Below are positions 319 through 28,380 of a stretch of DNA of 28,479 nucleotides, piece after piece. The position numbers and the translations under genes were made by a program. Under the pieces are notes generated by a model that had not been told where the DNA came from, did no database searches, and saw only the letters and a list, made by a program, of their open reading frames with translations. This DNA comes from Deinococcales bacterium (lineage in GTDB: Bacteria; Deinococcota; Deinococci; Deinococcales; JAAFIG01). Location: assembly GCA_043778225.1 (NCBI GenBank), contig JAYWGM010000038.1, positions 1 through 28,479 on the forward strand, in the 5' to 3' direction. Each line of letters begins with the position of its first letter. Within the stretch, counting starts at the first letter, position 1.

Positions 319-1606
319 GTATGTTCGGAATCGGTAAAATTAAGCGCTCTGCAATGGCTTTTACAACAGGAACAGCCACAGAATTACCGAGTAAGTCACA
401 ACTGATATTTTCTCCAACCAGCATTTGGTAATCATCTGGAAAACCATTCAAGCGCAACCCTTCTCGAATGCTTAAACGCCGTAGACCTCGAGTATCCAAA
501 ACTGCTATTCGACTCATGTCAGTTGCCACTAAGGTTGGACAAATTCCATTTGGGTCAAGAATTTTATTGATTTCAAAACTAAGTTTACCAACCACAATGT
601 TATAGCCTTTTTCTAAGTCCAGACGCGGTTGGCGCTTTTGCACTTCACCTGTTTTTATCAGGTCTTTAGGATGCTCAAACTCGAGGTAGCCTTTTTGCAC
701 AAGGTCATCAAGCAGTTCTTGCAAGTTAAATTGGTCAAATAGCCCTTGGGAATAAAAAAAAGTCGAAATTTCCTCGAGTGTTAAAGGCATTCCATCCATC
801 CAAGTGATACCTTTTTGAATTGCCCAGTGGCGCTTACGGCGTTCACGCAGCAACATCTCGAGCAGGCGTTTTTGAATAACCGAAACATCGCCTTTGAGTT
901 CTAAGTCCCAACTGTGGATATTATCTGCTCCACCACGTTTATCTTTGATACTTTTGCCGTATAAATCTTTGGGTCTATAATGCTTAAAAACTTTTTGGGT
1001 AAAAGCCGAATCCAAAACAGGTAAGCCAGTCTCGAGTAAATCACCGAGTCGTTTGAGTGGCACAGCTTCAAACTCGAGCGCAATAGCTTGCTGCAAATGC
1101 CCGAGGATAAAAATGCGTTTGCGTTCTTGCGGCACACCAAAATCTAGCGCATTCAAAACTTTCCAAGTGACTTGATAACCCAATTGCTCGAGAACCGCCA
1201 AAATGGTTTTGAGGGTGCGCCCTTGGTCATGGGCTACAAGTCCTTCGACATTTTCAAGCAGAAAACCAAGTGGTTTTTTTATCTCGAGAATGCGTTGAAT
1301 CTCAAAAAACAGTGTTCCTCGAGTATCCAAAAACCCTAGGCGTTGCCCTGCGCTGCTAAACGGCTGGCACGGAAAACCAGCCAGTAAATAATCAAAATCT
1401 GGAATGTCAGCCGCCACAATTTGTGTAATATCGCCTTGTATGGTTTCTTGGGCAAAATTTTGTTGATACGTTTGAATGGCTGATGCCTTAATTTCAGAAG
1501 TTAAAACATATTCGGTTTCTATATCCAAGGCTCGAGCCGCTTGCTCAAAGCCAAGGCGAATTCCTCCTATGCCCGCGAATAAATCTATAAAGCGAATTCT
1601 TTTCAT
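263..1606 (-). CDS. DNA (cytosine-5)-methyltransferase, M.NlaIV/M.NgoBV-like (predicted GGNNCC specificity)
   Basis: Motif I FIDLFAGIGG, motif IV AGFPCQPFS, VI ENVEGL, VIII PQERKRIF, X LGNSVAVPV. The variable region LYGKSIKDKRGGADNIHSWDLELKG is characteristic of the NlaIV/NgoBV methyltransferase group. Confidence 0.95.
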   Translation of the reverse strand: MKRIRFIDLFAGIGGIRLGFEQAARALDIETEYVLTSEIKASAIQTYQQNFAQETIQGDITQIVAADIPDFDYLLAGFPCQPFSSAGQRLGFLDTRGTLFFEIQRILEIKKPLGFLLENVEGLVAHDQGRTLKTILAVLEQLGYQVTWKVLNALDFGVPQERKRIFILGHLQQAIALEFEAVPLKRLGDLLETGLPVLDSAFTQKVFKHYRPKDLYGKSIKDKRGGADNIHSWDLELKGDVSVIQKRLLEMLLRERRKRHWAIQKGITWMDGMPLTLEEISTFFYSQGLFDQFNLQELLDDLVQKGYLEFEHPKDLIKTGEVQKRQPRLDLEKGYNIVVGKLSFEINKILDPNGICPTLVATDMSRIAVLDTRGLRRLSIREGLRLNGFPDDYQMLVGENISCDLLGNSVAVPVVKAIAERLILPIPNIPIQPSQYSFASALHSFYL

Positions 1607-1679
1607 AACGACCTTATAAGCATATTTTGATTCTAACCTACAGTATCTTTTGTTGACTTATTTTTATACATCTGTTCGT

Positions 1680-2519
1680 TTAAGTCACGAGCTTTAGCGC
1701 ACTTGCAAAGCACTTTTTGCCGATTCCAGCCAATTGCCATGACTCGAGCCAACGGTCTGATTCTTCGACATAAACATTATTTGCATCTGGGAAAACTCGA
1801 GCATAATTGATACTTGGGTGAAGTAATTCTGGAACAAACGAAAGCACTTCGTCTGGGGCAGCCGTACTTAAAAATCCCTGCATGGCTCGAGTCCAGACTT
1901 GCTCAAAAACAGCAATGTGACGTTCCATGTTTGGGGTATTCAATCCCACTTGAATACTGCCGCTATCCCCTATTCGCGCATGAATATAGCGCACTCGGTC
2001 TAACACAGGAGCAATAAACTCGAGTTTAGCCTCCATATCGCCGTAGACCCACTCGAGTCCCGTGTACCAATGGCTAAAATCAAGGTTAAATCGCAAATCT
2101 GGGAATACTTTTGCGGCTTGGACGGTGCGCCAAGCATCTTGGGTGATGGTGGCGCGGTGCGTTTCGATATACATGGGAATTTGGTGTTTTTGAGTTGCAT
2201 CGAGAATAGCCCGTAATAAAGCATCCATTTGCAGGTCGTCTTCAAAGCCTGTACCAACGTGAATGGTGACTGCTTCGGCTTTGGAAAGAACAGCCGCTCG
2301 AGCCACGGCATCAGCATCTTTGGGGTGGCGCACTGCTCCACCATCGGTAAAACGCAGTCCTGCCGCTCGAATCAAATCTGGGTCGCCACCTTGCACGCCA
2401 GTGTAGCCTTGGGCAGCAATCATCTCGAGGCGTTCAGCATCGGTTTTTCGGCTACCACTCGAGGACTCGGGTAAGTGCAGTAAGCTGCTCCAGTTTATCT
2501 CGAGTTGTAGACTGTTCAT
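1680..2519 (-). CDS. Sugar phosphate isomerase/epimerase-like TIM-barrel protein (xylose isomerase-like superfamily)
   Basis: Metal-ligand pattern IETHRATITQD, LDFSHW, YIHARIG, FVPELL. TAAGAT lies 6 nt upstream of the ATG. Confidence 0.8.
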   Translation of the reverse strand: MNSLQLEINWSSLLHLPESSSGSRKTDAERLEMIAAQGYTGVQGGDPDLIRAAGLRFTDGGAVRHPKDADAVARAAVLSKAEAVTIHVGTGFEDDLQMDALLRAILDATQKHQIPMYIETHRATITQDAWRTVQAAKVFPDLRFNLDFSHWYTGLEWVYGDMEAKLEFIAPVLDRVRYIHARIGDSGSIQVGLNTPNMERHIAVFEQVWTRAMQGFLSTAAPDEVLSFVPELLHPSINYARVFPDANNVYVEESDRWLESWQLAGIGKKCFASALKLVT

Positions 2520-2537
2520 AAGGGTATCTTACCAGCC

Positions 2538-3398
2538 TTACTTCAAGAATTCTTGGGCTTTTTTTGGCTGCATTGGAAATTGTGTTCCCATAATCGCATC
2601 CCAAACCCTGTCCGAAACCATACGGCGTAGACTCGAGAAAATGATGGCACTGAGTCCGACTTTGTAGCGGGTTCTTGGTTTTCGCGCTTGGACAGCCGCA
2701 AAAATAACTTTGGCTACAGCCTCAGGTTTGATAATTCCAGCATTAGAATTGGCTTGAAACATAGTTTGCGTGGTTTTTAGATGATTTTCTTTGAAGTAGG
2801 CATAGGGGCTGCTCGAGCCAGTTTTGGGCATGACCGCCGCAATTTTCTTATCGAATTCGGTATAGACCCCCGTGGGTTGAATCAGGCAAACATCTATCCC
2901 AAAACCCTGAACTTCAAAACGCAGCGCATCGGTGATGCTCTCGAGCGCCCATTTACTGGCATGGTACGCGCCAGCCCCAGGAGCGGTGAATGTGCCACCA
3001 ATCGAACCAACATTGATGATTCGCCCAGATTGAGAAGCCCGCATGGTTGGCAGTACCAGTTGGGTCAGGCGGACTAGCCCGAAGACATTGGTTTCAAATT
3101 GATGGCGCAATTTTTCTAACTCGAGTTCTTCGATGGGTCCGTTTAAGCCGTAACCGGCATTGTTGACCAGCACATCTATTTTGCCATGTTGCTCGAGGAT
3201 GGTTTGCACCGCTTTTTGCATTGAAGTTTCTGAGGTGACATCCAATTCAAGGATTTGACAACCAATTTTTTGCAGTGAGGCTAGGGTCTCGAGTTTTCTC
3301 GAGGTAGCGTAAACCACAAAGCCCTTTTGTTGAAAGTATTCGGCAGTGGCACGTCCGATGCCAGTGGCTGCTCCGGTGATTAAAACTATTTTTTGCAT
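2538..3398 (-). CDS. SDR family NAD(P)-dependent oxidoreductase
   Basis: TGAATGIG, LVNNAGYG and the catalytic YHASK (YxxxK) motif; AGGAG ribosome-binding site. Confidence 0.95.
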   Translation of the reverse strand: MQKIVLITGAATGIGRATAEYFQQKGFVVYATSRKLETLASLQKIGCQILELDVTSETSMQKAVQTILEQHGKIDVLVNNAGYGLNGPIEELELEKLRHQFETNVFGLVRLTQLVLPTMRASQSGRIINVGSIGGTFTAPGAGAYHASKWALESITDALRFEVQGFGIDVCLIQPTGVYTEFDKKIAAVMPKTGSSSPYAYFKENHLKTTQTMFQANSNAGIIKPEAVAKVIFAAVQARKPRTRYKVGLSAIIFSSLRRMVSDRVWDAIMGTQFPMQPKKAQEFLK

Positions 3399-3410
3399 GA
3401 GAATCTCTCC

Positions 3411-3478
3411 TAAGTAAACAAATGTTTACTTATAAAATCTAACTCGAGTTGCACAGTTTGTCAACAGGTGTTTACAAA
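3411..3478. promoter_or_regulatory. Two putative TetR operators (GT[AC]AACA-N2-TGTTTAC) between the divergent SDR and tetR genes
   Basis: Perfect palindrome TAAGTAAACA-AA-TGTTTACTTA at 3411-3432 and near-perfect TTTGTCAACA-GG-TGTTTACAAA at 3457-3478. Confidence 0.8.
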
Positions 3479-3486
3479 TGTACAAT
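3458..3486 (+). promoter_or_regulatory. Sigma70-type promoter of tetR (leaderless)
   Basis: TTGTCA (3458-3463), 17 nt spacer, TACAAT (3481-3486), ATG 7 nt later with no SD; overlaps the second operator. Confidence 0.7.
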
Positions 3487-3493
3487 CTGACTT

Positions 3494-4045
3494 ATGCCCG
3501 AAGCCAAACCACGCAATGCCAGCACCACTCGAGCCACGATTCTTATGGCAGCCAGAAGTTTATTTGCCCAAAGTGGTTACGACGGCATTAGCTTGCGCGA
3601 CATTGCCACCAAAGCCGATTGCAACGTTGCCTTGGTCTCGAGGTACTTTGGCTCTAAGGACGAGCTTTTTCGTGAAGCTGTTTCGGAAGGATTCAATCTT
3701 TCAGACATTGCCAGCAGCCACCGCCAAGACTTTGGGCAAAACATGGCGCGTTACATTCTTTCTAAGCGCCAACGCGGGGCGCTTGAGCCACTGCAAGCCC
3801 TCCTGCGAAGCACCAGCAACCCCAGCGCTACAGCCCTCATGCAGAACATCCTCGAGACCGAATTTATAACCCCACTGGCGATTTGGTTGGGTGGTGATAA
3901 TACCAAACTTCGGGCTGCGACCATTGCTGCGATTCTGATTGGGGTTGCCACCACCCGGGATATTCTCGAGAGTCCAAGTCTAACCAAACCAAGTGTAGAA
4001 AAAAATGTTGAAGTTCTCGCGCCGTTGCTTCAAGCCTTAGTTTAA
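3494..4045 (+). CDS. TetR/AcrR family transcriptional regulator
   Basis: TRATILMAARSLFAQSGYDGISLRDIATKADCNVALVSRYFGSKDELF is a canonical TetR HTH. Confidence 0.95.
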   Translation: MPEAKPRNASTTRATILMAARSLFAQSGYDGISLRDIATKADCNVALVSRYFGSKDELFREAVSEGFNLSDIASSHRQDFGQNMARYILSKRQRGALEPLQALLRSTSNPSATALMQNILETEFITPLAIWLGGDNTKLRAATIAAILIGVATTRDILESPSLTKPSVEKNVEVLAPLLQALV

Positions 4046-4151
4046 GTTACCAGCCAGCAGTCGAGAATGTATTGTATTCATTCGGCCTAATGTAAAGCAA
4101 AAAATCACCTGAGTTGGCTACGAAATTCAGTTACACTGCTTGAGGGGAATT

Positions 4152-6659
4152 ATGAACCAACAACAAGAATCTGTGGAAACAACAGAAAATATCAAAGCAG
4201 TACCAAAACAGGCAAATCCATGGGTAAGTTTTTTCCTAATCATCATCTTTTTTGTTATCATCAGTCTTACTCCCGCGAAAGAGTTTTTATCAAGCATCAC
4301 AGGTGGCGCGTGGGCGTTAGCACCTCAAAATCCTATCTTAATGATTTTACTGTTCTTTTTGTCGTTTTATCCTGCCGTAGCCATCCATGAACTTGGGCAT
4401 TGGGCATTCGGTTATGCCAATGGTTTTAAGCCAATGGGACTCATTCTGTACCCATTTCACTGGTATCGAACCAAGAAAGGTTGGCGTTGGCAACAACTGC
4501 CGAACACACCAAGCGGTGGTGGTATGGCAATGATGTACCCAAGTCACTTTACCCAATTACGCCAACGTTTACTTTGGTTTATCGCAGGTGCAGGTATTAC
4601 CAATATTCTTATTGGATTGATTTGTTTAATTATTGCCAATATGTTAGCTGTAGGTTTTAAGGGAGAGCCAACAGCTTTGGGTCATCCTGCTTTTTACTTA
4701 GCATTTTTTGGCTTCATTTCAATTTACACTGGCATCAGTGCTTTTATTCCAAAATCGTATCAGCAGCATGGTTATCAAGGCATAATGAGTGATGGAAAAC
4801 GCATTCAGAGACTATGGACACAACAAGACATCTCGAGCGAATTGGCTTCAGTACAAATTGATGGTTTAATTTATCAGGGACAACGCCCTCGAGACTGGTC
4901 TGAACAACTAATAGCCCAAATCAATCCTATGGCTATAAGTAACTCAATTGATGTTGTGGCTCTACAGTATTACTACTACGCCATGCTCGATAAGAGTGAA
5001 TTTAAGGCAGCCAAAGCCAGCCTTGAGCGCTTAGAATCACATCTTGATTTTGTTCCTGAATATGTGAGAAGCGAAATTCTATTTGAAGCCACTTTTTTTG
5101 CAGCACACCACGAAAAAGATTCTATTAGAGCCAACGAATTATTTAACCGCGCTCAAGCCATTCAAAGATTTAGTGATACAACCCACCAACGCGCCGAGGC
5201 TGCTTTGCATTGGCTCGAGAATCGTCCTGCACAAGCCCATGCTGCCTTTAAAAAAATCATTATAAGTCTAGATAATCGGCTGGATATTGGTTTAGCACAG
5301 GCTGAACGCGATTGGCTTGCGCCTTTGATAGCAGAAGCGGCGTTTGCAAACAACAAACCACTCGAGCCATACACAGAACAAAGTACACAATCACGCCAAA
5401 CTTTCAATCTCAATGGAATAGTTTGGTTGATTTTGGGTGGTTTACTTTTGTTTTCAATTGGAAATGCAATTCCATTTTTACAAACCCCAGAAATTCAAGC
5501 TAATGACCAAGCCTTTACTAAAGTCTGGAAAAGCCTTGGTTATGTAACCACAACTTTTCTCGCCATCTTGATTACCTTACCGTTCGCCAATTTTATCACT
5601 CGAGTCAGCTACGTGCTGTCTGGTGTCCAAGCTGGTTTTTTGTTTGGCTCATTACAAATTATTGCTTATTTTAGAATTTTTAGAAAAAACAACAGTTTTA
5701 GACTTGGCACTTTTGTGGTTTCAGGTTTACTGGGAGAAACAGGTGCTTTGGTCGCTCGAGATGGCTTAGATGTTCGCAAAGGCTTACAAAAAACCCTTTG
5801 GGGAACTTGGCTGACAATTGTGCTTACGGCATTGATTGGATTTGGATTCCAATGGCTTGTCGAGAGCGATTTATGGTTAGAAACCATTGCTGCTAGGCTT
5901 CAACCATTGTACCAACCAGAAGACCCAACGCCGCTTCGGATTGTAGCAACTATTTTTTTGATTTTACTGTTCGTTCCACTTGGTTTAATCATTATTGCTA
6001 TTGGTTGGTTATGTTCTTTTTTTGGTTGGCATATTTTTCATGGTGGTTGGCGGCTGGCAGTATTATCCAGAGATGGACAAGAGGCAAAACGAGAAGCGGC
6101 TCGTGCCATGTTGCTTGGCGCAGCAACCAATGGAATTCGTCCTCGAGATTGGTCTACGACATGGCTTGAACAAGTCACAGACGGTGAACCATTGGTCGCC
6201 CGAGATGTGCATATGCTGATTTGTGCTTATCTGGCAGCCCTTGACCATAATCAAATAGATAAGGCTCGAGGGTATTTAGAACGAGCTAGTGCTGCAAGCA
6301 GCTTACTATTCTTTCCCTACAATCAGGCTTTGCAACTTGAGCAAATCTATTACACCGCTTGGTACGCCAAAGATGCTGTGACTGCTCGTCAGATGCTCAA
6401 GAACGAAACAAATGTTCGCAATGACCAAGCAAGTTTTCAACGTGTTCTTGCGGCGTTATACTTTGCGGAGGGTAAAACACTTCAAGCTAGAAAAGCCATT
6501 GCAGAAGCTCGAGCCACCTTACCAAAATCTCAACATTCAGGGGTTGCAATTGCCGAATCAGATTGGTTGAATCAAATTGAAGCGGCTGTTTTGGAACTTG
6601 AATCCATAAGCGCTCACCAGCCAACACTCAAAAAACAAACGTCCAGTACATTGCACTAA
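4152..6659 (+). CDS. Membrane M50 (site-2 protease-like) metallopeptidase with an internal tandem duplication; each half has a helical TPR-like C-domain
   Basis: HELGH within a hydrophobic segment, IAGAGITN, SDG. The RPRDW...AE[RS]DWL block occurs twice. Start ATG 4152 follows a GAGGGG SD. Confidence 0.8.
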   Translation: MNQQQESVETTENIKAVPKQANPWVSFFLIIIFFVIISLTPAKEFLSSITGGAWALAPQNPILMILLFFLSFYPAVAIHELGHWAFGYANGFKPMGLILYPFHWYRTKKGWRWQQLPNTPSGGGMAMMYPSHFTQLRQRLLWFIAGAGITNILIGLICLIIANMLAVGFKGEPTALGHPAFYLAFFGFISIYTGISAFIPKSYQQHGYQGIMSDGKRIQRLWTQQDISSELASVQIDGLIYQGQRPRDWSEQLIAQINPMAISNSIDVVALQYYYYAMLDKSEFKAAKASLERLESHLDFVPEYVRSEILFEATFFAAHHEKDSIRANELFNRAQAIQRFSDTTHQRAEAALHWLENRPAQAHAAFKKIIISLDNRLDIGLAQAERDWLAPLIAEAAFANNKPLEPYTEQSTQSRQTFNLNGIVWLILGGLLLFSIGNAIPFLQTPEIQANDQAFTKVWKSLGYVTTTFLAILITLPFANFITRVSYVLSGVQAGFLFGSLQIIAYFRIFRKNNSFRLGTFVVSGLLGETGALVARDGLDVRKGLQKTLWGTWLTIVLTALIGFGFQWLVESDLWLETIAARLQPLYQPEDPTPLRIVATIFLILLFVPLGLIIIAIGWLCSFFGWHIFHGGWRLAVLSRDGQEAKREAARAMLLGAATNGIRPRDWSTTWLEQVTDGEPLVARDVHMLICAYLAALDHNQIDKARGYLERASAASSLLFFPYNQALQLEQIYYTAWYAKDAVTARQMLKNETNVRNDQASFQRVLAALYFAEGKTLQARKAIAEARATLPKSQHSGVAIAESDWLNQIEAAVLELESISAHQPTLKKQTSSTLH

Positions 6660-6665
6660 AGCCAC

Positions 6666-6941
6666 CTACCGATTTCGTGCTGTGTGAATTACACCGATGA
6701 TGTCAATTCTATTCTTACGCACAACATAAATAATTCGGTAAGGAGAGACCAGTAACTCACGGACATTTGGGTCTTCGTACTCAGGAACTTCACGTCCCAT
6801 TTCGGGGAAATCCCCCAAGCCATCGGCACGCAGCACCAATTTATCAACCATGCGCCGTGCATAAAGTTCGCTTTGTGGTTCAATATGATCATAAATTCGT
6901 TGCAAATGTTGTTTCGCAACATCTGTCCACGCTACTGTCAT
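6666..6941 (-). CDS. Type II toxin-antitoxin RelE/ParE family toxin
   Basis: VAWTDVAKQHLQRIYDHI...LGDFPEMGREVPE...VRELLVSPYRIIY...IDIIGVIHTAR. Confidence 0.9.
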   Translation of the reverse strand: MTVAWTDVAKQHLQRIYDHIEPQSELYARRMVDKLVLRADGLGDFPEMGREVPEYEDPNVRELLVSPYRIIYVVRKNRIDIIGVIHTARNR

Positions 6942-7590: not shown

Positions 7591-7685
7591 TCGGGTATTG
7601 TACATGGGTTTTTGGGGTAAACAGTACAGAACAAAAAATAAGGAAGCACAATAAATTTCATCTTTGTTTTGGCTATGCTGTGTGT

Positions 7686-8795
7686 ATGAAAAGACTTGGC
7701 TTGGCAGTTTTGGCGTTTACAGGTTTGGTTTTCGCGCAGCAAAGCAGCTATAAAACAACCACCATCGTGCGCGGACTCGAGAATCCGTGGGGCATGGCAT
7801 GGTTGCCCAGTGGCGAGATGCTGATTACTGAACGGATTGGGCGGTTGCGGCTGGTCAAAGGCGATAAACTCGAGGCAAATGCTATTCGTGGTGTGCCAAG
7901 TGTTTTAGCGCTTGGACAAGGTGGCTTGATGGATGTGGCGCTGCATCCCAAATTTGCTCAGAATCGTTTGGTTTATTTGTCGTATTCACATGGCACAAAC
8001 AACGCCAACCGAACTCGAGTGGCACGCGGCGTGTTTGATGGCTCAAGTCTAAGTGAAGTCAAAGTCGTCTTTGAAGTTACCCAAGCCAAAGCTGGTGGAC
8101 AGCATTTCGGCTCGAGGTTACAGTTTTTGCCCGACAACACCCTGCTGATTTCGACCGGTGATGGCGGCAATCCGCCAGCCAGTCTCGAGAATGGTTTTAT
8201 TCGTTTGCAAGCCCAGAATTTAACCAGTCGTCTCGGCAAAATTAGTCGCATTAACGATGACGGCAGCCTCCCTAAGGACAATCCGTTTGTGACCAATAAA
8301 AATGCCGATGGTGTGGTTTTTAGCCTCGGACATCGCAACATCCAAGGCTTAACTTATGACCCAATCAACAAACGCATCTGGGCGACCGAACACGGCTCGA
8401 AGGGTGGCGATGAGGTCAACCTGATTCTGAAAGGCGAGAATTTTGGCTGGCCCGTGGCTTCGCACAGCAACGAGTATTTTGGACCGCCAGTCTCGCAAAA
8501 TAAAAGTTTGCCGGGGATGCTCGACCCAAAACTGATTTGGACTCCGAGTATCGCGCCGTCCGGTTTAACGGTCTATAACGGCGATAAATTTCCTGCTTGG
8601 AAAGGCAATTTGTTTGCTGGGGCATTGGCTGGAACAGCCATTCATCGGCTCGAGGTCAGTGCTACTGGAGCGATTACCAAAGAACAGATTCTCGAGATGC
8701 CAACCCGAATTCGGGATGTTCGTGCTGGACCAGACGGGTTTTTATACATCCTGACCGATGAACGCGATGGACAATTGATTCGCCTCTCGCCTTGA
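7686..8795 (+). CDS. PQQ-dependent soluble sugar (aldose/glucose-sorbosone) dehydrogenase, secreted
   Basis: Signal peptide; GLENPWGMAWLP, GQGGLMDV, HFGSRL, LGHRNIQGL, EHGSKGGDEVN, RIRDV. TATGCT lies 6 nt before ATG 7686. Confidence 0.93.
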   Translation: MKRLGLAVLAFTGLVFAQQSSYKTTTIVRGLENPWGMAWLPSGEMLITERIGRLRLVKGDKLEANAIRGVPSVLALGQGGLMDVALHPKFAQNRLVYLSYSHGTNNANRTRVARGVFDGSSLSEVKVVFEVTQAKAGGQHFGSRLQFLPDNTLLISTGDGGNPPASLENGFIRLQAQNLTSRLGKISRINDDGSLPKDNPFVTNKNADGVVFSLGHRNIQGLTYDPINKRIWATEHGSKGGDEVNLILKGENFGWPVASHSNEYFGPPVSQNKSLPGMLDPKLIWTPSIAPSGLTVYNGDKFPAWKGNLFAGALAGTAIHRLEVSATGAITKEQILEMPTRIRDVRAGPDGFLYILTDERDGQLIRLSP

Positions 8796-8800: not shown

Positions 8801-8842
8801 AAATCAATATCCTCGAGCCGCATGACTCGAGGATATTGATTT
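8801..8842. terminator. Bidirectional intrinsic terminator between convergent genes
   Basis: 17-bp perfect inverted repeat AAATCAATATCCTCGAG / CTCGAGGATATTGATTT with an 8-nt loop. Confidence 0.8.
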
Positions 8843-8846: not shown

Positions 8847-10931
8847 TTATTTTGGCAAAGCATTCAAGCGTGGGTCAACAATCACACGGTAACTTGCATC
8901 GGTGGCAATACAGCGCCCAAAAGCATCTCGAGCCGCCGTCACATCCGAACTTGTGCCAAACAATTGGAATTGCTGGAGGTGAATCGAACCCAGCACAAAG
9001 TAAGCTCGAGCGTAGGTTTTATCGAGCGTAATGGCTTTGTTGATTGCTTCAATGGCGAGGTCAAAGCGTCCCCGAGCCAGTTCTGCCACTGCCAAATAGG
9101 TCTGAACGATGGCATTGTTTGGGGCAATTTTAACGAGGTCAATAAAAGCATCTCGAGCATCATCTGGGCTGACGGTTTGTAGCATCGCCAAACCACGGTA
9201 CAAAAGGGCATGGACATCAGTAGAAGCCAATTTAACCGCCCGATTAAAAGCGGTCAGTGCCTCAAGTGGGTTTTCTGAATCGAGTAAACCTTGCCCCAAG
9301 CGAAATTGATACAAGGCTTCGCCAGTCAGTTTTGGCGTTCCTAAACGACGTATATCAGGGACTTCGGTCAATGAAACTTTGGCTCGGACACTGGTGTTGT
9401 TGAGTTTAATTGCCGCATCCAAGGCTTTGGCAGCATCGTCGGCTCGGTATTCACGCAAGGCAGTAATTCCATTGAGGTATGCCACATCGAATTCTGCTTG
9501 TGGCAATCTGGCTAAAATCGTTTTGGCTCGCTCGAGTCGTCCGGTTTGTAGATACATCCGTGCCACCAGTTTTTGATCTAAATTATTGGGATAAGCCACT
9601 TTTAAGGCGACTTCGGCTTCGTCATAACGCCCTAATTTTGAGAGTGTCCCCGCCAAGGCAAGGCTCGAGCGCTGAAATTTGCTGTCGCGGTCAAGCGACT
9701 GACGATAGGCTGCGGCGGCTTGGTCATAACTACCAATTCGTTCGAGCAAAAAACCACGGGCAAATGCCAGAACGGCGCTGCTCGAGTAACGTTTTTCTCC
9801 TGCGGCAACAAGGCTATTGGCAGCCTCGGTATCAAACAAACGAACAGCAAGCGAATAAATGATGTCCGGCACGTCTGGATACGTTTTAGTCACTTCCTGT
9901 AAATAGCTGACCGCACCATCGCGGTCTACCTCGAGCAAAGTATCCAGCACACGGGTGTGCAGTCCAGCATCGTCGGGCATTCGGGCAACCAAGCCAGTTA
10001 AAACCCCAACGGCGCGTTCGGTGTTGCCATACTGCTCGAGAATATCGGCAGCACTAATCGCCGCCTCGAGATAGCGCGGGTTGTATTGCAATGCCAACTG
10101 CATTGCATCCAGAGCGCGTTGCACCACATCTTGGGTAATCGGGGTGATGGCTCGGATGATATAACGCCCATTGAGGTAATGAATTTCTGGTTTGGCGGGG
10201 TTAATTTTTAGGGCAGCTTCGATCGCAATTTTGGCTTCTGGGTTTTTGCGCCCAGAAATTAAGCCAATAATATACGCCGCCTGAACAAACGGGTCGCTCG
10301 AGGCAGCTTTGGCAATAGGTGTGATTAAAGTCAGGGCTTCATCGTTTTTATTAGCAGCCACCAACAATAAAGCTCGAGCCGCCACCGCCCATGGGTTCTG
10401 GGGGGCTTTCTCGAGAACCGCCGCATTGCCTTCTGAACCCGGCGCAGCACTGGCAGTCACGATTTCTGGGGCTGGGATGGTGCGCTCGATGGCTGCCAAT
10501 TGTTGACTGTCTAGGCTGGTAGGTTTTAAGGACAGTGCCGTGATTAAACTGGCATTGGCGTTTTTGACCAGTGCCGCAAAGTCTGCCCCTCGAGCCACTG
10601 CGCTCTGGGTAGCCGTTCCGCGTTTAATGCTGTAGGTGATGGTATACGCACCGGCTGCTCCCTCGAGTTTACCACTGACCAGAATATCCAAGGCAAAGAC
10701 TTTATCTAAGGTTTCCTTGAAGGCTGGGCGGATTCGCACAGCGCTAAATAAATCCAGAGGGGCAGGCAGAATTGTGCCGTCTATGGTTTCAAGACTGCGC
10801 TGGATGGCAGTCGGTACAGCCAAGGACAGTACGGCATCGGAAGTCTCGAGCGGGTACATACCAATGCGTTGTCCATTGGCACTTCCAGCAAAGACAGCCA
10901 CGGACAGGGCGACTAAAATTCGTGATTTCAC
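8847..10931 (-). CDS. Secreted tetratricopeptide repeat protein
   Basis: Signal peptide MKSRILVALSVAVFAGSANG and many TPR units (e.g. ALKINPAKPEIHYLNG, AITLDKTYARAYFVLG). GTG start has TAAGAT 6 nt upstream. Confidence 0.88.
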   Translation of the reverse strand: MKSRILVALSVAVFAGSANGQRIGMYPLETSDAVLSLAVPTAIQRSLETIDGTILPAPLDLFSAVRIRPAFKETLDKVFALDILVSGKLEGAAGAYTITYSIKRGTATQSAVARGADFAALVKNANASLITALSLKPTSLDSQQLAAIERTIPAPEIVTASAAPGSEGNAAVLEKAPQNPWAVAARALLLVAANKNDEALTLITPIAKAASSDPFVQAAYIIGLISGRKNPEAKIAIEAALKINPAKPEIHYLNGRYIIRAITPITQDVVQRALDAMQLALQYNPRYLEAAISAADILEQYGNTERAVGVLTGLVARMPDDAGLHTRVLDTLLEVDRDGAVSYLQEVTKTYPDVPDIIYSLAVRLFDTEAANSLVAAGEKRYSSSAVLAFARGFLLERIGSYDQAAAAYRQSLDRDSKFQRSSLALAGTLSKLGRYDEAEVALKVAYPNNLDQKLVARMYLQTGRLERAKTILARLPQAEFDVAYLNGITALREYRADDAAKALDAAIKLNNTSVRAKVSLTEVPDIRRLGTPKLTGEALYQFRLGQGLLDSENPLEALTAFNRAVKLASTDVHALLYRGLAMLQTVSPDDARDAFIDLVKIAPNNAIVQTYLAVAELARGRFDLAIEAINKAITLDKTYARAYFVLGSIHLQQFQLFGTSSDVTAARDAFGRCIATDASYRVIVDPRLNALPK

Positions 10932-11076: not shown

Positions 11077-12159
11077 ATGTTGTCACCCCAGCCGTTTGAC
11101 CAAAATACCCTCACCATGCTCGAGTCTGAGCTTCCTAAAAACGACCTTCTGACGGTTGTTTGCTGCGTTAATCCAGCCAATGCAATCAATCAGGGTGGGG
11201 CTTTACGAATTCGCATCAAGAATTTTTTAGCCACCCTCGATGCCCCCGATAAACTCAAGAATGCCGTCATGGATGATTTAACGCTGGCACAAAAACAGAC
11301 CAAAACTCGGGCGTATTACCTTTGGGATGAACACGGTCATATTCAGTCCAAGACGATTGACGCAGAACTCGAGCTTCCCGAAGTGGCAAGTTTTGGCGCT
11401 CCCGACCTCGAGCCTTTACATTTTGGGCTTGAAGCCAATCCTTTAACCGCAATTGTTTTGGTAGACCGCGAATGGCGGCGTTTATTGACCGTCCGACTTG
11501 GCGAAATCCAAGAGCTACACAGTCCGCTCGAGGCAGATAAAACCAGCGTCCTTGGACGCGACACCGATAAAAATCAGCGCGAAGTACACGATGACCAAGT
11601 TTTTTGGCGTGATTTGATCGAACGGGTGCTTGATTTACAACGCACAGATGGTTTTGAGCAACTTTTGATTGCTGGACCACCCGAAGTCAGGTCTGGTCTG
11701 CTTGAGCAACTGCCCAAATCTTTAAGCACAATGCTGGTCGGCGAATTTGTGGTTCAGGGCGATGCCACACCCGCCCATATTCTCGAGGCAGCCCAAGCCA
11801 CACTACAAGAAGCCAGCCACACGGCTGGCGAAACCGCCCTAGGAAAAGTGCTTGAGCGTGGTGTGCAAGGCTTAGAAAACACCCTGACTGCCCTCCAAGA
11901 AGGACGGGTCTACGAGTTGCTGGTTTCTGGCAATGGCTCGGGTGTACCAGTTTGGCGCGATACCCAAGGCTATGTTTTTGCCACCTATCCAGCCCAAGGA
12001 ATCTCGCCTTTGACTGGCTTAGGGGTCGAAGGAACAGATTTACGTCAGGTTTTGGGCGAATTGCGTCAGCGCTTTGGCTTAAAGGTGCATTTTTTACATG
12101 ACGACCTCGCGCTCCGCCTCGAGACCGAGATTGGTGGTTTGGGCGGATTACTGCATTAA
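11077..12159 (+). CDS. Bacterial archaeo-eukaryotic release factor (baeRF1/VLRF1-like) family protein
   Basis: eRF1-like middle domain (IVLVDREWRRLLTVRLGEI...LLIAGPPEVRSGLLEQLPKSL) and L7Ae-like C-domain (GVQGLENTLTALQEGRVYELLV...GGLGGLL). AAGGAG SD. Confidence 0.8.
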   Translation: MLSPQPFDQNTLTMLESELPKNDLLTVVCCVNPANAINQGGALRIRIKNFLATLDAPDKLKNAVMDDLTLAQKQTKTRAYYLWDEHGHIQSKTIDAELELPEVASFGAPDLEPLHFGLEANPLTAIVLVDREWRRLLTVRLGEIQELHSPLEADKTSVLGRDTDKNQREVHDDQVFWRDLIERVLDLQRTDGFEQLLIAGPPEVRSGLLEQLPKSLSTMLVGEFVVQGDATPAHILEAAQATLQEASHTAGETALGKVLERGVQGLENTLTALQEGRVYELLVSGNGSGVPVWRDTQGYVFATYPAQGISPLTGLGVEGTDLRQVLGELRQRFGLKVHFLHDDLALRLETEIGGLGGLLH

Positions 12160-22557: not shown

Positions 22558-22628
22558 GTGGTTACTTTACCCTAACCATGTTGATTTTGAATTCTTTGCT
22601 TCATTTCGAGTATCCTTAGGCTTATCCC

Positions 22629-23198
22629 ATGAACGAAACCGAATTGCTCCGCCCCAAAGTTGCCCTGCCAACCACGCCGCGCAACTTTGCCGAACTCGAG
22701 CGCTACTCGAGCATTAAACGCTTTTGGGATTTACTCGAGGGTTGCCATAAAAACGGGTTTAGCGTGGTTGTGCCAAAGCGCTCTGAACCCAGCCTCTGCC
22801 GCCGTGAAATTATGGGCATTACGCGGGAAAAAGCTGGTGGACTGCACAACGATGCTGCCTTAAAACTGGCACTCGAGGACGACGAAGAAATGGCACTCGA
22901 GGCGCTTAATTTAATCCCCGAAGCTCGGGAAGCGGTACAAAAATTACTCGAGGGTTACCGAGCGCCATTTGTTGAAATTCTAAGCAGTGCCTACCGACTC
23001 GAGTTTCGTGTTCAACTGGCTTTTACCGCTCGGCGTGAATTATTGCTACGCGCAAGTGCCGAATTTGTGCCGCTGCCCGACCTCGAGCCGCCGTTTCCGA
23101 TAAGCTGGAAACTCGAGCCGATACGCTGGCGGCGTGATGATTATAAGGTGTTGCTCGAGCGGGCGGCTTCTGGTAGCCTCGAGCGGGCAAATCACTAA
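22629..23198 (+). CDS. Hypothetical protein (189 aa)
   Basis: Clean ORF with normal composition and TAGGCT 6 nt before the ATG; no family recognised. Confidence 0.75.
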   Translation: MNETELLRPKVALPTTPRNFAELERYSSIKRFWDLLEGCHKNGFSVVVPKRSEPSLCRREIMGITREKAGGLHNDAALKLALEDDEEMALEALNLIPEAREAVQKLLEGYRAPFVEILSSAYRLEFRVQLAFTARRELLLRASAEFVPLPDLEPPFPISWKLEPIRWRRDDYKVLLERAASGSLERANH

Positions 23199-23333
23199 GT
23201 ATCTCCCGCCTGCATTTTAGATTTTTCACAAAACGGCAAATCTGTCATTACGGCGTGAGATACGTCACCCTTACTCCTGTTAGTCGGAAATGTTTTAGCA
23301 AAAAACTCTAAAACATTTCGGGGAGGTACTTAG
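23195..23333. mobile_element. Putative MITE-like or structured element bounded by 13-bp inverted repeats
   Basis: CTAAGTATCTCCC (23195-23207) and GGGAGGTACTTAG (23321-23333) match 12/13. Internal inverted repeats: GTATCTCCCGCC/GGCGTGAGATAC and GAAATGTTTTAG/CTAAAACATTTC. Confidence 0.5.
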
Positions 23334-23336
23334 AGA

Positions 23337-23370
23337 CAAAATAAAAAGCCCCACGCCAAAGCGTGAGGCT
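23337..23370 (-). terminator. Intrinsic terminator of the Gly-rich protein gene
   Basis: Minus strand reads AGCCTCACGC-TTTG-GCGTGGGGCT followed by TTTTATTTTG. Confidence 0.8.
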
Positions 23371-23384
23371 CGAGCCAAGCAGAT

Positions 23385-24197: not shown

Positions 24198-24262
24198 ATG
24201 TTTTCCTCCAGATTGGTCTTGCCTCAAAAAGGTAGCACAAAGCGCCACAAGATTTCACTTAA

Positions 24263-24901: not shown

Positions 24902-25281
24902 GGCGCAACAGCCACGCGGGGTCTACCGTCTATGCCAATTGCCACAAAAGTAAAATAACCACTGGTCACCAAACTCGAGTCGTTGGGCATGGCTTTTAAG
25001 ACATCCACCCGAACCCGCATACTGGTGCGCCCGACCGATTCAACTTTTGAAATCACTTCAATCACTTCGCCCATTTTAATCGGAATCCTAAAATCCACTT
25101 TGTCCATACACGCTGTCACCACCGAGCCACCACTAAAACGCCCAGCCGCAAAACCCGCGACCTTATCCATAATCGAAACAATGTGTCCACCAAAAGCCGT
25201 ACCGTTTGGGTTGGTCTGATTTGGAAAAATTTGCTCCAAGCTTCTGCACTCCGAGTGGGCGTATCGTTCTTCTAAAGTCAT
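24898..25281 (-). CDS. Acyl-CoA thioesterase (hotdog fold, YciA-like)
   Basis: IFPNQTNPNGTAFGGHIVSIMD, VVTA, VGRTSM, FTFVAI. Start ATG 25281 follows GGGAG. Confidence 0.93.
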   Translation of the reverse strand: MTLEERYAHSECRSLEQIFPNQTNPNGTAFGGHIVSIMDKVAGFAAGRFSGGSVVTACMDKVDFRIPIKMGEVIEVISKVESVGRTSMRVRVDVLKAMPNDSSLVTSGYFTFVAIGIDGRPRVAVAP

Positions 25282-25283
25282 GA

Positions 25284-25637
25284 TTATTTCTCCCATCCTG
25301 CCAGTGCTTGGACAAACCCAGCAATTTCTTTGAGGTCTTTGGGGGGCATATCTGGATAGGCTGGCATTTTGGCTGCACCAAGGTCTTTACCCTCGAGAAT
25401 TCGCGTTTTGATGTAGCTTAAATCGCGCAAACGCGGGTTTTCGATCATTGACTTGCCGTAGCCACCAATGCCGCCATCATGGCAACGCATACAATTGTAC
25501 TGCTCGAACAAAGCTCGTCCCTCGGGGTGGGAAGCTGTGGCTTTTGCCAGCGCCTCGTTTTGCGGCGCACAGGCAATTAAAATGCTGGGAATCACAAGCG
25601 CCAATGCCAAAAGCGCTCGAGTAAAGGTTAGTTTCAC
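25284..25637 (-). CDS. c-type cytochrome, probable lipoprotein
   Basis: Heme motif CMRCH, axial Met in KMPAY, lipobox-like LIAC after a hydrophobic signal. Confidence 0.9.
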   Translation of the reverse strand: MKLTFTRALLALALVIPSILIACAPQNEALAKATASHPEGRALFEQYNCMRCHDGGIGGYGKSMIENPRLRDLSYIKTRILEGKDLGAAKMPAYPDMPPKDLKEIAGFVQALAGWEK

Positions 25638-25766
25638 ATTGTCTATTGTGCGCTAAGTCAAGGCATGACGCGAGAGACACAAAGCCCAAGGGGTGATTTG
25701 TTGTCTGATTGTGCAGTCTAGCTTTTCTACCTCCCATTCTCGAGCTTATCGTGTTACGGTTTATTG

Positions 25767-26933
25767 ATGCGTTACCTGACTGCTGGTGAATCTCACGGAC
25801 CAAGCCTGACCACGATTCTCGAGGGTTTCCCTTCGCAAGTGCCATTAAGCGCTAATGATGATGTCAACCCGTGGCTCGAGAAGCGCCAACAAGGATATGG
25901 GCGTGGCAGACGAATGCAAATCGAAAAAGATGCCGTAGAGTTCTTGAGCGGCGTTCGGGCTGGACGCACCACGGGCGCACCGATTACGCTACAAATCATC
26001 AATAAAGACCACGCCAATTGGCTCGAGATTATGGATGTGCAGGCTGGCAACGAACCGCGCAAAAAAGCCTTGACCGCCGCCCGTCCGGGTCATGCCGATT
26101 TGGTCGGCGGCATTAAATACCGTCATAAAGACTTGCGCGATGTGCTAGAACGCGCCTCGGCTCGAGAAACCGCCTCTCGAGTAGCAGTTGGTGCAATTGC
26201 CCTCAAATTCTTGTCCGAGTTGGGTGTGCAGGGCGCAAATTATGTAGATAGGCTGGCTGGAATTGCCTCGAGCGTGCCATTTGACTGGGATAAACTGGAA
26301 GACATCGAAGCCTCAGTGGTGCGTTGCCTTGACCCAAACGCCGCCGAACAAATGATTGCGCGAATAGACCAAGCCAAAACCGATGGCGACACACTCGGCG
26401 GGATTCTCGAGGTGCGCTTTAGAAACCTTGTCCCCGGACTGGGAAGTTACACCCACTGGGACAGAAAACTCGATGGTCGAATTAGCCACGCCATCATGGC
26501 AACCCAAGCGGTCAAAGGCGTAGAAATCGGTAGGGCATTTGCCAATGCCGACCTGCCGGGTTCAAGGGTTCACGATGCCGTCTACTACCGCGAGAGCAAC
26601 CTAACCCAAGGGCATTACCAACGCGACACCAACGGGGCTGGAGGACTCGAGGCTGGCATGACCAATGGCGAGGATTTGGTCATTCGGGTCGCCTTAAAAC
26701 CCATTGCGACCCTGATGAAGCCGCTCCCAACTGTGGATGTGGTGACACATCAAGCTGCTGATGCTGCTCGAGAACGCTCGGACACCACAGCTGTACCCGC
26801 CGCAGGTGTTATCTTTCAATGCGTGATAGCCACAGTGCTAACCGAAGCCTACCTCGAGAAATTTGGCGCGGACACACTGCCCGAAATTCAAGAACGGATT
26901 CTCGAGTATCAAAGGTTTGTGGAACAGTATTAG
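25767..26933 (+). CDS. aroC: Chorismate synthase
   Basis: MRYLTAGESHGP, GYGRGRRM, RPGHADL, ERASARETA, NGAGGLEAGMTNG, KPIATL, ERSD. TACGGT lies 6 nt before ATG 25767. Confidence 0.98.
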   Translation: MRYLTAGESHGPSLTTILEGFPSQVPLSANDDVNPWLEKRQQGYGRGRRMQIEKDAVEFLSGVRAGRTTGAPITLQIINKDHANWLEIMDVQAGNEPRKKALTAARPGHADLVGGIKYRHKDLRDVLERASARETASRVAVGAIALKFLSELGVQGANYVDRLAGIASSVPFDWDKLEDIEASVVRCLDPNAAEQMIARIDQAKTDGDTLGGILEVRFRNLVPGLGSYTHWDRKLDGRISHAIMATQAVKGVEIGRAFANADLPGSRVHDAVYYRESNLTQGHYQRDTNGAGGLEAGMTNGEDLVIRVALKPIATLMKPLPTVDVVTHQAADAARERSDTTAVPAAGVIFQCVIATVLTEAYLEKFGADTLPEIQERILEYQRFVEQY

Positions 26934-26995
26934 CTCGAGAAAAACAAGTTGGGTGTAAATGGCAATGCGGGATGCGGAAAACATTGGAGGTAAAA

Positions 26996-27263
26996 GTGAT
27001 TCGAGAAAAATATATATCTTTAGATTAGAAATTTTCTCAATCAGAAAATCACTGTTGAAAACTTTGAAAAAACTTATCTACGGGAATTCAAATCAGATTT
27101 ATTGCTAGATGATCTTGAGTTATTCGGTATACTCGATCGATTGTTTGCTTCTGTTGACTGTTACTGGGCTGATTGCGTAGAGGGACAGGAAAGTAAATTT
27201 GAAATATCTGAAGTTCAGTTACGAAAAGATGCTTGGATTGCTTTGGAGTCGTTAAGTTCCTGA
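26996..27263 (+). pseudogene. Frameshifted colicin D-like immunity domain gene
   Basis: GGAGG SD and GTG start. MIREKYISL, then one extra nt near 27023, then IRNFLNQKITVENFEKTYLREFKSDLLLDDLELFGILDRLFASVDCYWADCVEGQESKFEISEVQLRKDAWIALESLSS*. Confidence 0.7.
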
Positions 27264-27414
27264 AACGCCAAAGCAGTGTATGGTGGGAATCGGTTTAAGT
27301 CATATTTTGCGTGGCGTGGGCTTTGCTCACAACATCATTCCATCACATATTTAGAAGCACCAAACCTTGATGTGCGCCTCGAGTGTGTTAGCAGAATCTC
27401 TGTTTTGATATGCC

Positions 27415-27519
27415 CTAAAATTTTGCCTCTAACACAACCCCTGCTTGCCTAGGCTCGAGCCGAATGGTCACATCAAATTCAAGTTCATGCGCCACCCGAA
27501 CTAAACTCGAGACTTCAAG
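27415..27519 (-). pseudogene. C-terminal remnant of a probable XRE-family HTH protein truncated by the IS3 insertion
   Basis: LEVSSLVRVAHELEFDVTIRLEPRQAGVVLEAKF* begins directly at the IS3 left end and resembles the LxxxxLxRxAxxLxxxVxIxL tail of HTH_3 proteins. Confidence 0.55.
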
Positions 27520-27520
27520 G

Positions 27521-28380
27521 TGAACTTGATAGACTTTTGTTAGTTCAAGGTTGAGACTATCTAAGAGGAGTCACAACCATGCGAACGAAACCACGAGAAT
27601 TTACAGCAGAATTTAAGCTACAAGCCATTAAGCTCGTTTTAGACGATAAAGTACCAGTGAGTAAAGTAGCCAAAGACCTAGGAATTGGCATTCAGAACCT
27701 CAGTAGATGGTTAGCCATCCACAACAAGAGCCTAACTGAGAAACGCCCAGCTTTCACTGGACGAGGTATAAACGCCCTTTCAGAGCAGGAAAAGCGTATT
27801 AAAGAACTCGAGCGTGAGAATTATATTCTTAAACAGGAGCGTGAAATTTTAAAAGCAGCAACGAAGTTCTTCTTACTCGTAAGATAGCACCTGACGGGCT
27901 ACTCGCGCTTCGCCAAGGAAGCCAAGTAAAATTTACTTTCATGGATGAGCAAAAGAAGAACTTCGAGATTAAAATAATGGCACGAATGCTCAACGTGACG
28001 GTGGCAGCGTATCGGATGTGGAAGAAACGAGGAGTAAGTAATCGTAGGAAAGAAGATGCTGTGCTAGGCGAAGAAATCAAGATTATTCACACAGATAGCA
28101 AACGAACTTATGGTTCGCCAAGGGTAAAAATCGAATTGCTCGAGGGAAAGGGTAAAAAGGTAAGTCGTACTCGAGTCAATCGTCTGATGCGAGAAGCAGG
28201 TTTGATTACTAAGTTTAAGCGAAAATACGTGATTACAACAAAGAGTAACCATTCGCATAGTATTGCTGAGAATATCTTAAATCGTGAATTTCAGGCAGAC
28301 AAACCGAACCAGAAGTGGGTATCAGACATTACTTACCTCGATACAAGTGAAGGCTGGTTATACCTTGCAGTGGTGCTTGA
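27521..28380 (+). mobile_element. IS3-family insertion sequence, truncated within orfB
   Basis: Left IR begins TGAACTTGATAGAC; orfA and orfB are in the 0/-1 frames; homology stops after YLAVVLD. Confidence 0.9.
27579..27887 (+). CDS. IS3-family transposase OrfA
   Basis: REFTAEFKLQAIKL...VAKDLGI...LSRW HTH and leucine zipper RIKELERENYILKQEREILKAATKFF; GAGGAG SD. Confidence 0.9.
   Translation: MRTKPREFTAEFKLQAIKLVLDDKVPVSKVAKDLGIGIQNLSRWLAIHNKSLTEKRPAFTGRGINALSEQEKRIKELERENYILKQEREILKAATKFFLLVR

Follow-up and report, generated by a model that had tools for sequence, protein, structure and literature searches.

What keeps one six-base palindrome, CTCGAG, so abundant in a bacterial genome that it recurs about every 160 bases, in genes and between them? 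The question is raised by a stretch of 28,479 nucleotides from a Deinococcales bacterium (GCA_043778225.1, contig JAYWGM010000038.1, positions 1 to 28,479 of the forward strand), the whole of which is called the window here. It carries exactly 185 copies of CTCGAG (6.5 per kb) within 487..28175, the first at 487 and the last at 28170-28175, a set that belongs to neither strand. A preliminary description of the window had reported about 185 copies against about 6 expected. The expectation is 6.5 copies from base composition and 3.97 (standard deviation 2.1, largest 10) from 100 dinucleotide-preserving shuffles, none of which reached 185. Our preferred answer, to which we give a probability of about 0.4, is that CTCGAG is a self word of the highly iterated palindrome (HIP) type, kept by a directional force that acts on each site.

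The sites are not a product of coding alone. Twenty-four open reading frames (ORFs), picked from the ORF list and Pfam matches, contain 172 of them, and 13 lie fully outside. The seven sites that had been described as intergenic (3443, 8812, 8826, 11053, 18922, 23369 and 26934) are all among these 13, together with 17024, 25739, 27378, 27454, 27506 and 27807. All three coding frames are used, as had also been claimed, with 115 sites read as Leu-Glu, 28 as x-Arg-x and 30 as x-Ser-Ser/Arg; the sum is 173 rather than 172 because one site sits in two overlapping ORFs. Shuffling synonymous codons within each gene gave 21.7 ± 4.2 sites (largest 34 in 500 shuffles) against the 173 observed. Density in the window is 4.08 per kb outside ORFs and 6.80 per kb inside, the former measured on only 3,184 bases, and genome-wide the two are equal.

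The enrichment is not limited to the window. The assembly to which the window belongs (G000; 4.03 Mb in 107 contigs, 48.7% GC, 89% complete) carries 24,877 copies of CTCGAG, 26.7 times the base-composition expectation and more than of any other hexamer. All 107 contigs are rich, at 4.0-10.6 per kb. A crude ORF caller found 2,962 ORFs of at least 150 residues, covering 84% of the genome, with short genes included in the uncalled part. The called genes hold 20,989 sites (12,426, 4,202 and 4,361 in the three frames, in the order given above) and 3,908 lie outside them, at densities of 6.19 and 6.13 per kb respectively. The genome-wide synonymous shuffle gives 2,210 ± 44 genic sites, and the earlier view that codon or dipeptide bias is insufficient is thus upheld by an amino-acid- and codon-preserving null at both scales. 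CTC GAG is used for 69.3% of the 17,921 Leu-Glu pairs, compared with 9.1% of Leu codons (CTC) and 22.6% of Glu codons (GAG) elsewhere in the genome. Of the places where the word can be written synonymously, 12,400 of 17,886 Leu-Glu pairs (69.3%) are filled in frame 0, 4,202 of 7,455 [SPTA]-Arg-[VADEG] triplets (56.4%) in frame 1 and 4,361 of 10,324 x-Ser-[Ser/Arg] triplets (42.2%) in frame 2. Codon use elsewhere predicts about 2% per frame.

The word is exactly six bases long: positions on either side of it lie close to background, with no flank preference, and the nine pairs of one-letter variants stand at 0.15-1.4 times expectation, against 26.7 times for CTCGAG itself. Spacing between sites is near exponential (coefficient of variation of the gaps 0.998), the only deficit being at distances under about 20 bases; at scales of 500 bases and 1 kb the dispersion index is 0.88 and 1.0 respectively. 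Neither a 10-11-base period nor regular spacing was found in the gaps. A distance of 6 between sites is never seen, and GAGCTC, the hexamer which it would create, has only 24 copies in the genome. Placement is therefore Poisson-like, which fits independent gain and loss at each site and not a spacing rule. Near gene starts and stops the density stays level at about 6 per kb, apart from small dips at starts and over the final 20 bases. Gaps of at least 1.5 kb free of sites number only 19 and are all of low GC (31-47%), and on this basis they are recent imports which lack the word.

This abundance has a cost at the protein level, where the word distorts both codon use and composition and the frequency of Leu-Glu is nearly doubled. 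Leu-Glu is the most over-represented dipeptide in G000 (observed/expected (O/E) 2.33, 15.9 per 1,000 codons), and Ser-Ser stands at 1.58. It is also the top dipeptide in G032, a second CTCGAG-rich genome (O/E 2.04). In 200 kb of G143, a poor genome with the same GC as G000, the O/E of CTCGAG is 1.00, Leu-Glu is unremarkable (1.34, 8.5 per 1,000 codons) and CTCGAG accounts for 7.6% of Leu-Glu pairs.

Other palindromes in G000 are subject to extreme avoidance: of the 64 palindromes of six bases, 34 do not reach 0.1 of expectation. There are three copies of GGCGCC and one each of GGGCCC, AGGCCT and GACGTC, while GGCC occurs 131 times (O/E 0.009) and GATC has an O/E of 0.13. Together with some 20 methyltransferase genes, this indicates a lineage under heavy restriction pressure. 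In G032, rich in CTCGAG, only 4 of 64 six-base palindromes fall below 0.1 of expectation, and so enrichment of the word and avoidance of other palindromes are separate phenomena.

CTCGAG enrichment is a property of the whole family. All 18 other family genomes sampled (five genera; genome sizes were rounded for the per-kb values) carry the word at 4.3-6.8 per kb, and the family loci around the chorismate synthase gene aroC have 3.8-8.7 sites per kb over a GC range of 44-66%. In a survey of 326 genomes of the order with completeness of at least 80%, which contains one flagged genome (G293) on which no result rests, 16 of 16 family genomes (completeness 82-94%) are rich. Deinococcus-like genomes avoid CTCGAG, and the 104 genomes of genus g7 have only 26-1,372 copies each. 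Densities in between, 1.4-3.5 per kb, are found in three f5 genera and several f2 genera. Of the genomes labelled f3 two are rich, G142 (7.0 per kb) and G032 (3.6 per kb), whereas G143, which shares its genus label with G142, stands at 0.3 per kb, 23-fold below G142. On a tree of aroC from 35 genomes the family forms one clade (100/100), with G032, G142, G143 and G144 unresolved near its base. On this single-gene tree the rich state would have changed at least twice, with which one origin may still be reconciled.

Named relatives extend the pattern. The preliminary description mentioned an abundance of CTCGAG in some Deinococcota such as Meiothermus, and loci retrieved with the G030 aroC protein agree: named Meiothermus loci have 2.27 sites per kb, with 53% of Leu-Glu pairs written as CTCGAG against 15% expected. 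Named Calidithermus loci stand at 3.7 per kb (62% against 25% expected). Named Thermus loci have 0.89 per kb and no excess (23% against 28% expected).

The aroC gene itself (25764..26933, + strand, Pfam Chorismate_synt), which has 11 sites in the window, served as the comparative test case. In a codon-level alignment of 30 genomes with 25 site columns, both age and turnover can be seen. In some columns the difference is synonymous throughout: CTCGAG is present in 18 of 18 family genomes at column 657, where three f3 genomes write the same Leu-Glu as CTGGAG or CTGGAA, and at column 1107 in 16 of 18 family genomes compared with 0 of 12 outside the family. At columns 54, 84, 111, 258, 1143 and 1155 the site needed an amino-acid change to Leu-Glu; at column 258 this came from Thr-, Val- or Gln-Glu, and column 1155 has the site in seven of seven genomes of the window's genus. 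At columns 412 and 427 the site is distributed patchily inside a genus. Of six relatives of about 91% identity, G015 alone has changed ACTGAG (Thr-Glu) to CTCGAG by three adjacent substitutions, and also TTAGAR to CTCGAG; as this is one gene, no rates follow.

The force behind these sites acts at the DNA level, is blind to reading frame, near-saturating, old and still active, and is independent of GC content and of restriction-system load. CTCGAG shares with the HIP class an over-representation beyond base, dinucleotide and codon composition, presence in all frames and in non-coding DNA, and clade-wide occurrence. HIP1 (GCGATCGC) and the alternate highly iterated palindromes of cyanobacteria are treated by Elhai (2015; PMC4390886) and Xu et al. 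(2018; PMC5861425), and more recently by Kamoku and Nielsen (bioRxiv 10.1101/2024.09.10.611283) and Rodriguez-Cruz et al. (2026; PMC13756078). According to these sources, the GC-rich cyanobacterial palindrome is 15- to 300-fold over-represented (PMC5861425), and HIP is linked to orphan methyltransferases which recognise it (PMC4390886). The latter would lead one to expect a methyltransferase specific for the word, or for its core, wherever the word abounds. HIP1 enhances natural transformation when methylated (bioRxiv 10.1101/2024.09.10.611283), and has now been proposed as a watermark of kin DNA (PMC13756078). Like HIP1, CTCGAG lies in genes and between genes throughout a clade, and orphan-like m6A (N6-methyladenine) at the word is on record in three cultured relatives. 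Unlike HIP1, it belongs to another phylum, is a different word of six bases rather than eight, occurs about once per 160 bases, and goes without a methyltransferase conserved across the family. Its Poisson-like spacing also differs from the quasi-periodic spacing given for HIP1 in PMC13756078. The text of Elhai (2015) mentions neither CTCGAG nor Meiothermus nor any name beginning with Deinococ, and no report of CTCGAG excess in Deinococcota was found in the full-text literature searched, a coverage that does not extend to subscription journals.

How a HIP-type self word would be kept can be outlined. A sequence-specific reader of the restriction-modification kind would recognise the bare hexamer, and the strict six-base palindromic recognition points to such a reader. 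In the cultured relatives the reader would be an orphan methyltransferase which places m6A on CTCGAG; the family's own reader remains putative. DNA bearing the word would fare slightly better when two alleles meet, whether during integration of kin DNA after natural transformation or in heteroduplex repair. Each potential site would thereby be under a small directional push, through conversion bias or an equivalent weak selection, acting on DNA irrespective of frame, strand and gene. In the course of the family's history about half of the writable places would have been filled, and amino acids changed to Leu-Glu and Ser-Ser. We infer that a protein reader exists, that methylation takes place in G000 and that the push operates via recombination or repair. 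A role in integrating kin DNA is the most attractive link, suggested by analogy with the recent HIP1 work, and is put forward tentatively, at somewhat less than even odds.

The published m6A in cultured relatives fits the HIP paradigm. Tables S3/S4 of Blow et al. (2016; PMC4752239) list active Type II m6A at CTCGAG, with no cognate nuclease named, for three species of the same order as the window's genome: Marinithermus hydrothermalis (M.Mhy14884I, Marky_0034, 94.6% of CTCGAG sites methylated), Meiothermus chliarophilus DSM 9957 (M.Mch9957IV, MeichDRAFT_0814, 94.1%) and M. ruber DSM 1279 (M.Mru1279II, Mrub_2385, 99.5%). The main text of that paper does not contain Meiothermus, Marinithermus or 'over-represented', and its two CTCGAG passages both concern an orphan methyltransferase of Nocardia whose motif clusters at the replication origin, not a genome-wide excess. 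By gene position and size, the likely Marinithermus enzyme is G025:C1:33946-35382 (479 residues), that of M. chliarophilus G163:C3:817289-818977 (563 residues) and that of M. ruber G171:C1:2437352-2439142 (597 residues, with 50.6% identity to that of G163). In the proteins of G025 and G163 an Eco57I-type domain is combined with TaqI_C. Over 135 residues the Marinithermus enzyme shares only 27% identity with that of Calidithermus (G163), which means that the same specificity comes from non-orthologous enzymes even among cultured relatives. CTCGAG density in these three genomes is 2.9 (G025), 3.4 (G163) and 2.44 per kb (G171).

G000 itself has about 20 methyltransferase genes, and those for cytosine-C5 (C5) enzymes that were inspected adjoin nucleases, e.g. 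of EcoO109I or HNH type. The window encodes one such enzyme (263..1606, - strand, PF00145, 280.8 bits), whose gene itself contains 10 sites. Similar frames (451-480 residues, similar Pfam scores) occur only in G001, G003, G007, G016 and G017, so that it is not family-wide, and nothing ties it to CTCGAG. A 660-residue enzyme on contig C65 of G000 has the same Eco57I plus TaqI_C architecture as the published CTCGAG enzymes. It is about 50% identical to proteins labelled Betaproteobacteria, Rhodocyclaceae, Gallionella, Burkholderiales and Methylococcales, and judging by these matches looks mobile. Two further groups were set aside as candidates for a common enzyme: proteins of about 485-540 residues which match Eco57I in many genomes proved to be Type I HsdM subunits in the seven that were scanned, and the D12-class enzyme, present in 17 of the 18 other family genomes, is a mixture of several unrelated subclasses, of which the one in G013, G009, G011 and G018 has no match in G000. 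As a separate observation, at G000:C89:21497-24825 the gene dprA is followed within about 700 bases by an ORF of 277 residues and a D12-class methyltransferase-like ORF of 380 residues, a pair which recurs in G007 at 86% identity.

Several results weigh against the HIP-type reading. No reader emerged from the methyltransferase comparisons of G000 and its family, and no methyltransferase common to the whole family came out of surveys of 31 genomes for four Pfam families. The likely CTCGAG enzymes of G025, G163 and G171 have no relative above 25% identity in G000 (best 23-25%), and the C65 enzyme is ruled out as the family's methyltransferase, being present only in G000, G001 and G003 among the 31 genomes. 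In the closed family genome G013 the methyltransferases are two of D12 class, a C5 enzyme lying in a defence island, a Type ISP enzyme and an HsdM; G000 has an ortholog of none of them, the best matches being at 27-33% identity where there is any. G010 has no C5 match, and carries 4.3 CTCGAG per kb nonetheless; G013 and G002 have no N4/N6 match. For M. silvanus DSM 9946 the rows of PMC4752239 list five motifs, none of them CTCGAG. G159, which we take to be M. silvanus, nevertheless carries the word at 2.45 per kb, the same density as in M. ruber. SMRT (single-molecule real-time) sequencing detects 5-methylcytosine (m5C) poorly, and the missing motif is not proof that methylation is absent.

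Competence and viral DNA add to these difficulties. ComEC and DprA are encoded in G000, a point in favour of the reading, but both turned up in five of five genomes checked, rich and poor alike, the poor G143 among them. Deinococcus is naturally transformable, yet avoids the word in the order survey. Competence alone therefore explains nothing. Some viral contigs in IMG/VR (L233, L218 and L187) carry 5-7 CTCGAG per kb in all three frames, which a purely transformation-based push would not predict; this sample was drawn with a pattern of three clustered sites (80 of 131 stretches) and is biased by that pattern. Proteins of these three contigs showed no similarity to those of G000, and L233 encodes RusA and a Mu-type portal.

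The earlier proposals can be judged in this light. The suggestion of a HIP1- or DUS-like genome marking stands as regards a DNA-level, frame-blind enrichment of the HIP1 kind throughout genome and family; the cognate enzyme was not found in G000. The expected CTCGAG methyltransferase is matched by published m6A in three relatives, and not by any G000 ortholog or by an enzyme common to G000 and G013. The absence of a shared enzyme in the family, together with M. silvanus, argues that a particular methyltransferase is not essential.

One variant takes this last point further. In a sequence-specific 'word drive' of a kind not known before, a reader unrelated to the known CTCGAG methyltransferases, to Vsr or to XhoI would convert near-cognate DNA to CTCGAG during repair or recombination, needing no conserved methyltransferase and being strong enough to rewrite proteins. 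We regard this as unlikely, if worth pursuing. Among 16 family genomes none has the XhoI-family nuclease (PF04555), and of the 326 genomes in the order 6 do, so that CTCGAG is not accompanied by a restriction-modification system of XhoI type. Five of the six genomes have an ordinary CTCGAG density of 0.7-2.0 per kb, and the sixth (G270) is a sub-threshold match. In four f4 genomes the nuclease genes adjoin beta-class N4/N6 methyltransferases (L309, at G021:C1:73699-77256, and L306-L308), and these genomes, at 0.7-1.8 CTCGAG per kb, show no visible avoidance. The beta-class partners are only 24-27% identical to their best G000 protein.

A different answer, to which we would likewise give only a minor share of belief, is that an abundant chromosomal protein, a nucleoid organiser or similar, binds CTCGAG, with a tiny gain in fitness per site and neither methylation nor recombination bias. 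The even density in genes, between genes and around gene ends agrees with this, as do the stability of the word in a family spanning 44-66% GC, the lack of a conserved methyltransferase, and M. silvanus with its word and, in the published tables, no CTCGAG motif. Against it stands the Poisson-like spacing, with no helical or other regular period. A bare six-base palindrome free of flanks is typical of restriction-modification enzymes and not of architectural proteins, about 25,000 sites would each need effective selection, and no candidate protein was found. The Chi words read by RecBCD and AddAB offer a parallel to CTCGAG, being over-represented self words which favour recombinational repair of a cell's own DNA. 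Chi words are asymmetric and strand-biased, whereas CTCGAG is a palindrome; the nuclease domain of AddAB/RecB type (PF12705) goes unmatched in G000 and is matched in 7 of the 15 other family genomes. Kamoku and Nielsen themselves liken HIP1 to Chi (bioRxiv 10.1101/2024.09.10.611283).

An uptake signal is a further possibility, though quite improbable. A surface receptor would prefer fragments with CTCGAG, and biased uptake followed by recombination would accumulate the word. The known cases, the uptake signal sequences (USS) of Pasteurellaceae and DNA uptake sequences (DUS) of Neisseriaceae, lie genome-wide in and between genes, are absent from foreign DNA and are thought to have spread by molecular drive. 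CTCGAG resembles them as a short word enriched throughout the genome in genes and between, in its use of all frames with distortion of peptides, and in the imports which lack it; ComEC and DprA are present, and HIP1 has now been proposed as an uptake signal (PMC13756078). However, USS and DUS are non-palindromic signals of 9-12 bases at about 1 per kb, while CTCGAG is a six-base palindrome at 6.2 per kb. As one signal per fragment suffices, saturation would be expected far below 1 per 160 bases. ComEC and DprA do not separate rich from poor genomes (five of five in both searches), and no receptor was identified.

Repair of the very-short-patch type with a cytosine methyltransferase, the logic of Dcm-Vsr and of Elhai's model for HIP1, would correct T:G mismatches in near-cognate sequence to CTCGAG. 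In Escherichia coli, Dcm-Vsr (CCWGG) is a methyltransferase-linked repair system which nudges word frequencies towards the recognition site, with a small effect. The only Vsr seen in a CTCGAG-rich genome is that of G032, where at about 83.9-85.5 kb of contig C11 (L119:1489-3007) a C5 methyltransferase, the only one in that genome, is followed by an overlapping Vsr gene (PF03852, 58 bits) and then by a SNF2-type helicase. This pair resembles Dcm-Vsr and speaks for such a mechanism, as does the presence of C5 enzymes in the rich G142, G032 and G013 and their absence from the poor G143 and G144. One-letter variants which keep the TCGA core are also the commonest class (6,184 against 3,503 and 4,106). 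G143 has no C5, N4/N6 or Eco57I-type match and only a 21-bit D12-class match, and G032 has in addition two large Eco57I-type enzymes of about 1,300-1,500 residues, one with MmeI-type domains. The objections are nevertheless severe. No Vsr turned up in any of the 16 family genomes or in either g19 genome, and the 27 of 326 genomes in the order which encode it are mostly poor in CTCGAG. The C5 enzymes of the rich genomes (G013, G032, G142 and G000) are not one orthogroup, with 22-35% identity between those of G013 and G032 and the rest, and G010 is rich without one. There is no depletion of the transition variants TTCGAG (O/E 1.37) and CTTGAG (1.41), and the methylation published for relatives is m6A, not m5C. 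The canonical Vsr mechanism is largely refuted, and this explanation is very improbable.

That no special system is at work, and that codon or dipeptide bias, palindrome avoidance sparing one word or an assembly artefact suffices, is already refuted: 59% of genic sites (12,426 of 20,989) do fall in the Leu-Glu frame, and CTC and GAG are favoured in high-GC relatives, which fully explains Thermus, but the synonymous shuffle, the rarity of both codons elsewhere, the equal density outside genes, the 19 separate assemblies with the word (one of them closed) and the poor control G143 leave it next to no chance.

HIP1 has gone unexplained for three decades and has offered an experimental handle only since 2024. 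CTCGAG is a second and denser case in an unrelated phylum, and highly iterated palindromes are hence not a cyanobacterial oddity. It also offers contrasts absent from cyanobacteria. The whole family is saturated, with some 6 sites per kb; cultured Meiothermus, Calidithermus and Marinithermus reach about 2.4-3.4 per kb and have m6A on record at the word; M. silvanus is as dense, with no such motif in the published tables; Thermus shows no excess; Deinococcus-like genomes avoid the word; and G142 and G143, which share a genus label, stand 23-fold apart. These contrasts make the reader of the word and the need for methylation directly testable. Should the variant with conversion of near-cognate DNA be true, HIP1 and CTCGAG would be two independent inventions of a general principle of marking kin DNA, and the search for the machine would start from cultured Meiothermus and Calidithermus and from the rich/poor pair G142/G143. 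In practical terms, absence of CTCGAG flags imported DNA, and XhoI-based cloning or digestion of such DNA will behave abnormally. What is new here is the order-wide map, the rich and poor controls, the negative tests of Vsr, XhoI and AddAB, and the link to the published CTCGAG methylomes.

Within the window, local density varies. A small ORF at 22629..23198 (+ strand), with no Pfam family, is the densest locally, with 11 sites in 570 bases (19.3 per kb), and its product contains 10 Leu-Glu pairs. A gene of low GC (42%) at 4140..6659 (+ strand) is below average, with nine sites (3.6 per kb). Two intergenic sites only 14 bases apart lie at 8812..8831 (unstranded) between convergent neighbours, the ORFs at 7680-8795 (+) and 8847-10931 (-).

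A repeat of about 140 bases between genes (23195..23335, unstranded) is present in multiple copies and has no CTCGAG. Copies of it, 75-99% identical, lie on 17 or more contigs of G000, in several cases at their ends, and also in six genomes of the same genus, and its contig depth is about 10 times that of its flanks. The word is in 0 of 17 assembled copies, and the repeat is not part of the mechanism but marks DNA which resists the word. Paired changes in its two hairpin arms suggest a structured RNA or a miniature inverted-repeat transposable element (MITE); it matched no Rfam family, nor did anything else in an Rfam scan of the window. Its use as a neutral clock for site gains was rejected, given 17 copies, paired changes and no site. 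Seeding of tandem repeats by the word was likewise rejected, since 46 of 294 arrays from Tandem Repeats Finder (TRF) with a period of 10-39 hold CTCGAG in the unit, compared with 38 expected. Of 353 non-overlapping TRF arrays in G000, 221 repeat every 20-39 bases, most of them every 23-27, and their units are unrelated in sequence. They resemble the 'constant size, variable sequence' tandem repeats which PMC8161180 describes for Bacillus.

The window stretch was found as contigs in two of three listed sequencing runs, both of one study, and none of the listed runs holding it is an RNA run. The main contigs are identical to the window; minor contigs differ at 39 positions, one of which (22015) is within a CTCGAG, too few for testing, and base modification is not visible in contigs. 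Among the remaining genes, the ORF at 11077-12159 (+) matches Pfam baeRF_family10 (bacterial archaeo-eukaryotic release factor family 10) with 57 bits. At one end of the contig (263-2519, -) the C5 methyltransferase gene stands beside an ORF of 279 residues with only a weak TIM-barrel match, and at the opposite end (27941-28411, +) there is a fragment of an IS3-type transposase (HTH_21 and rve).

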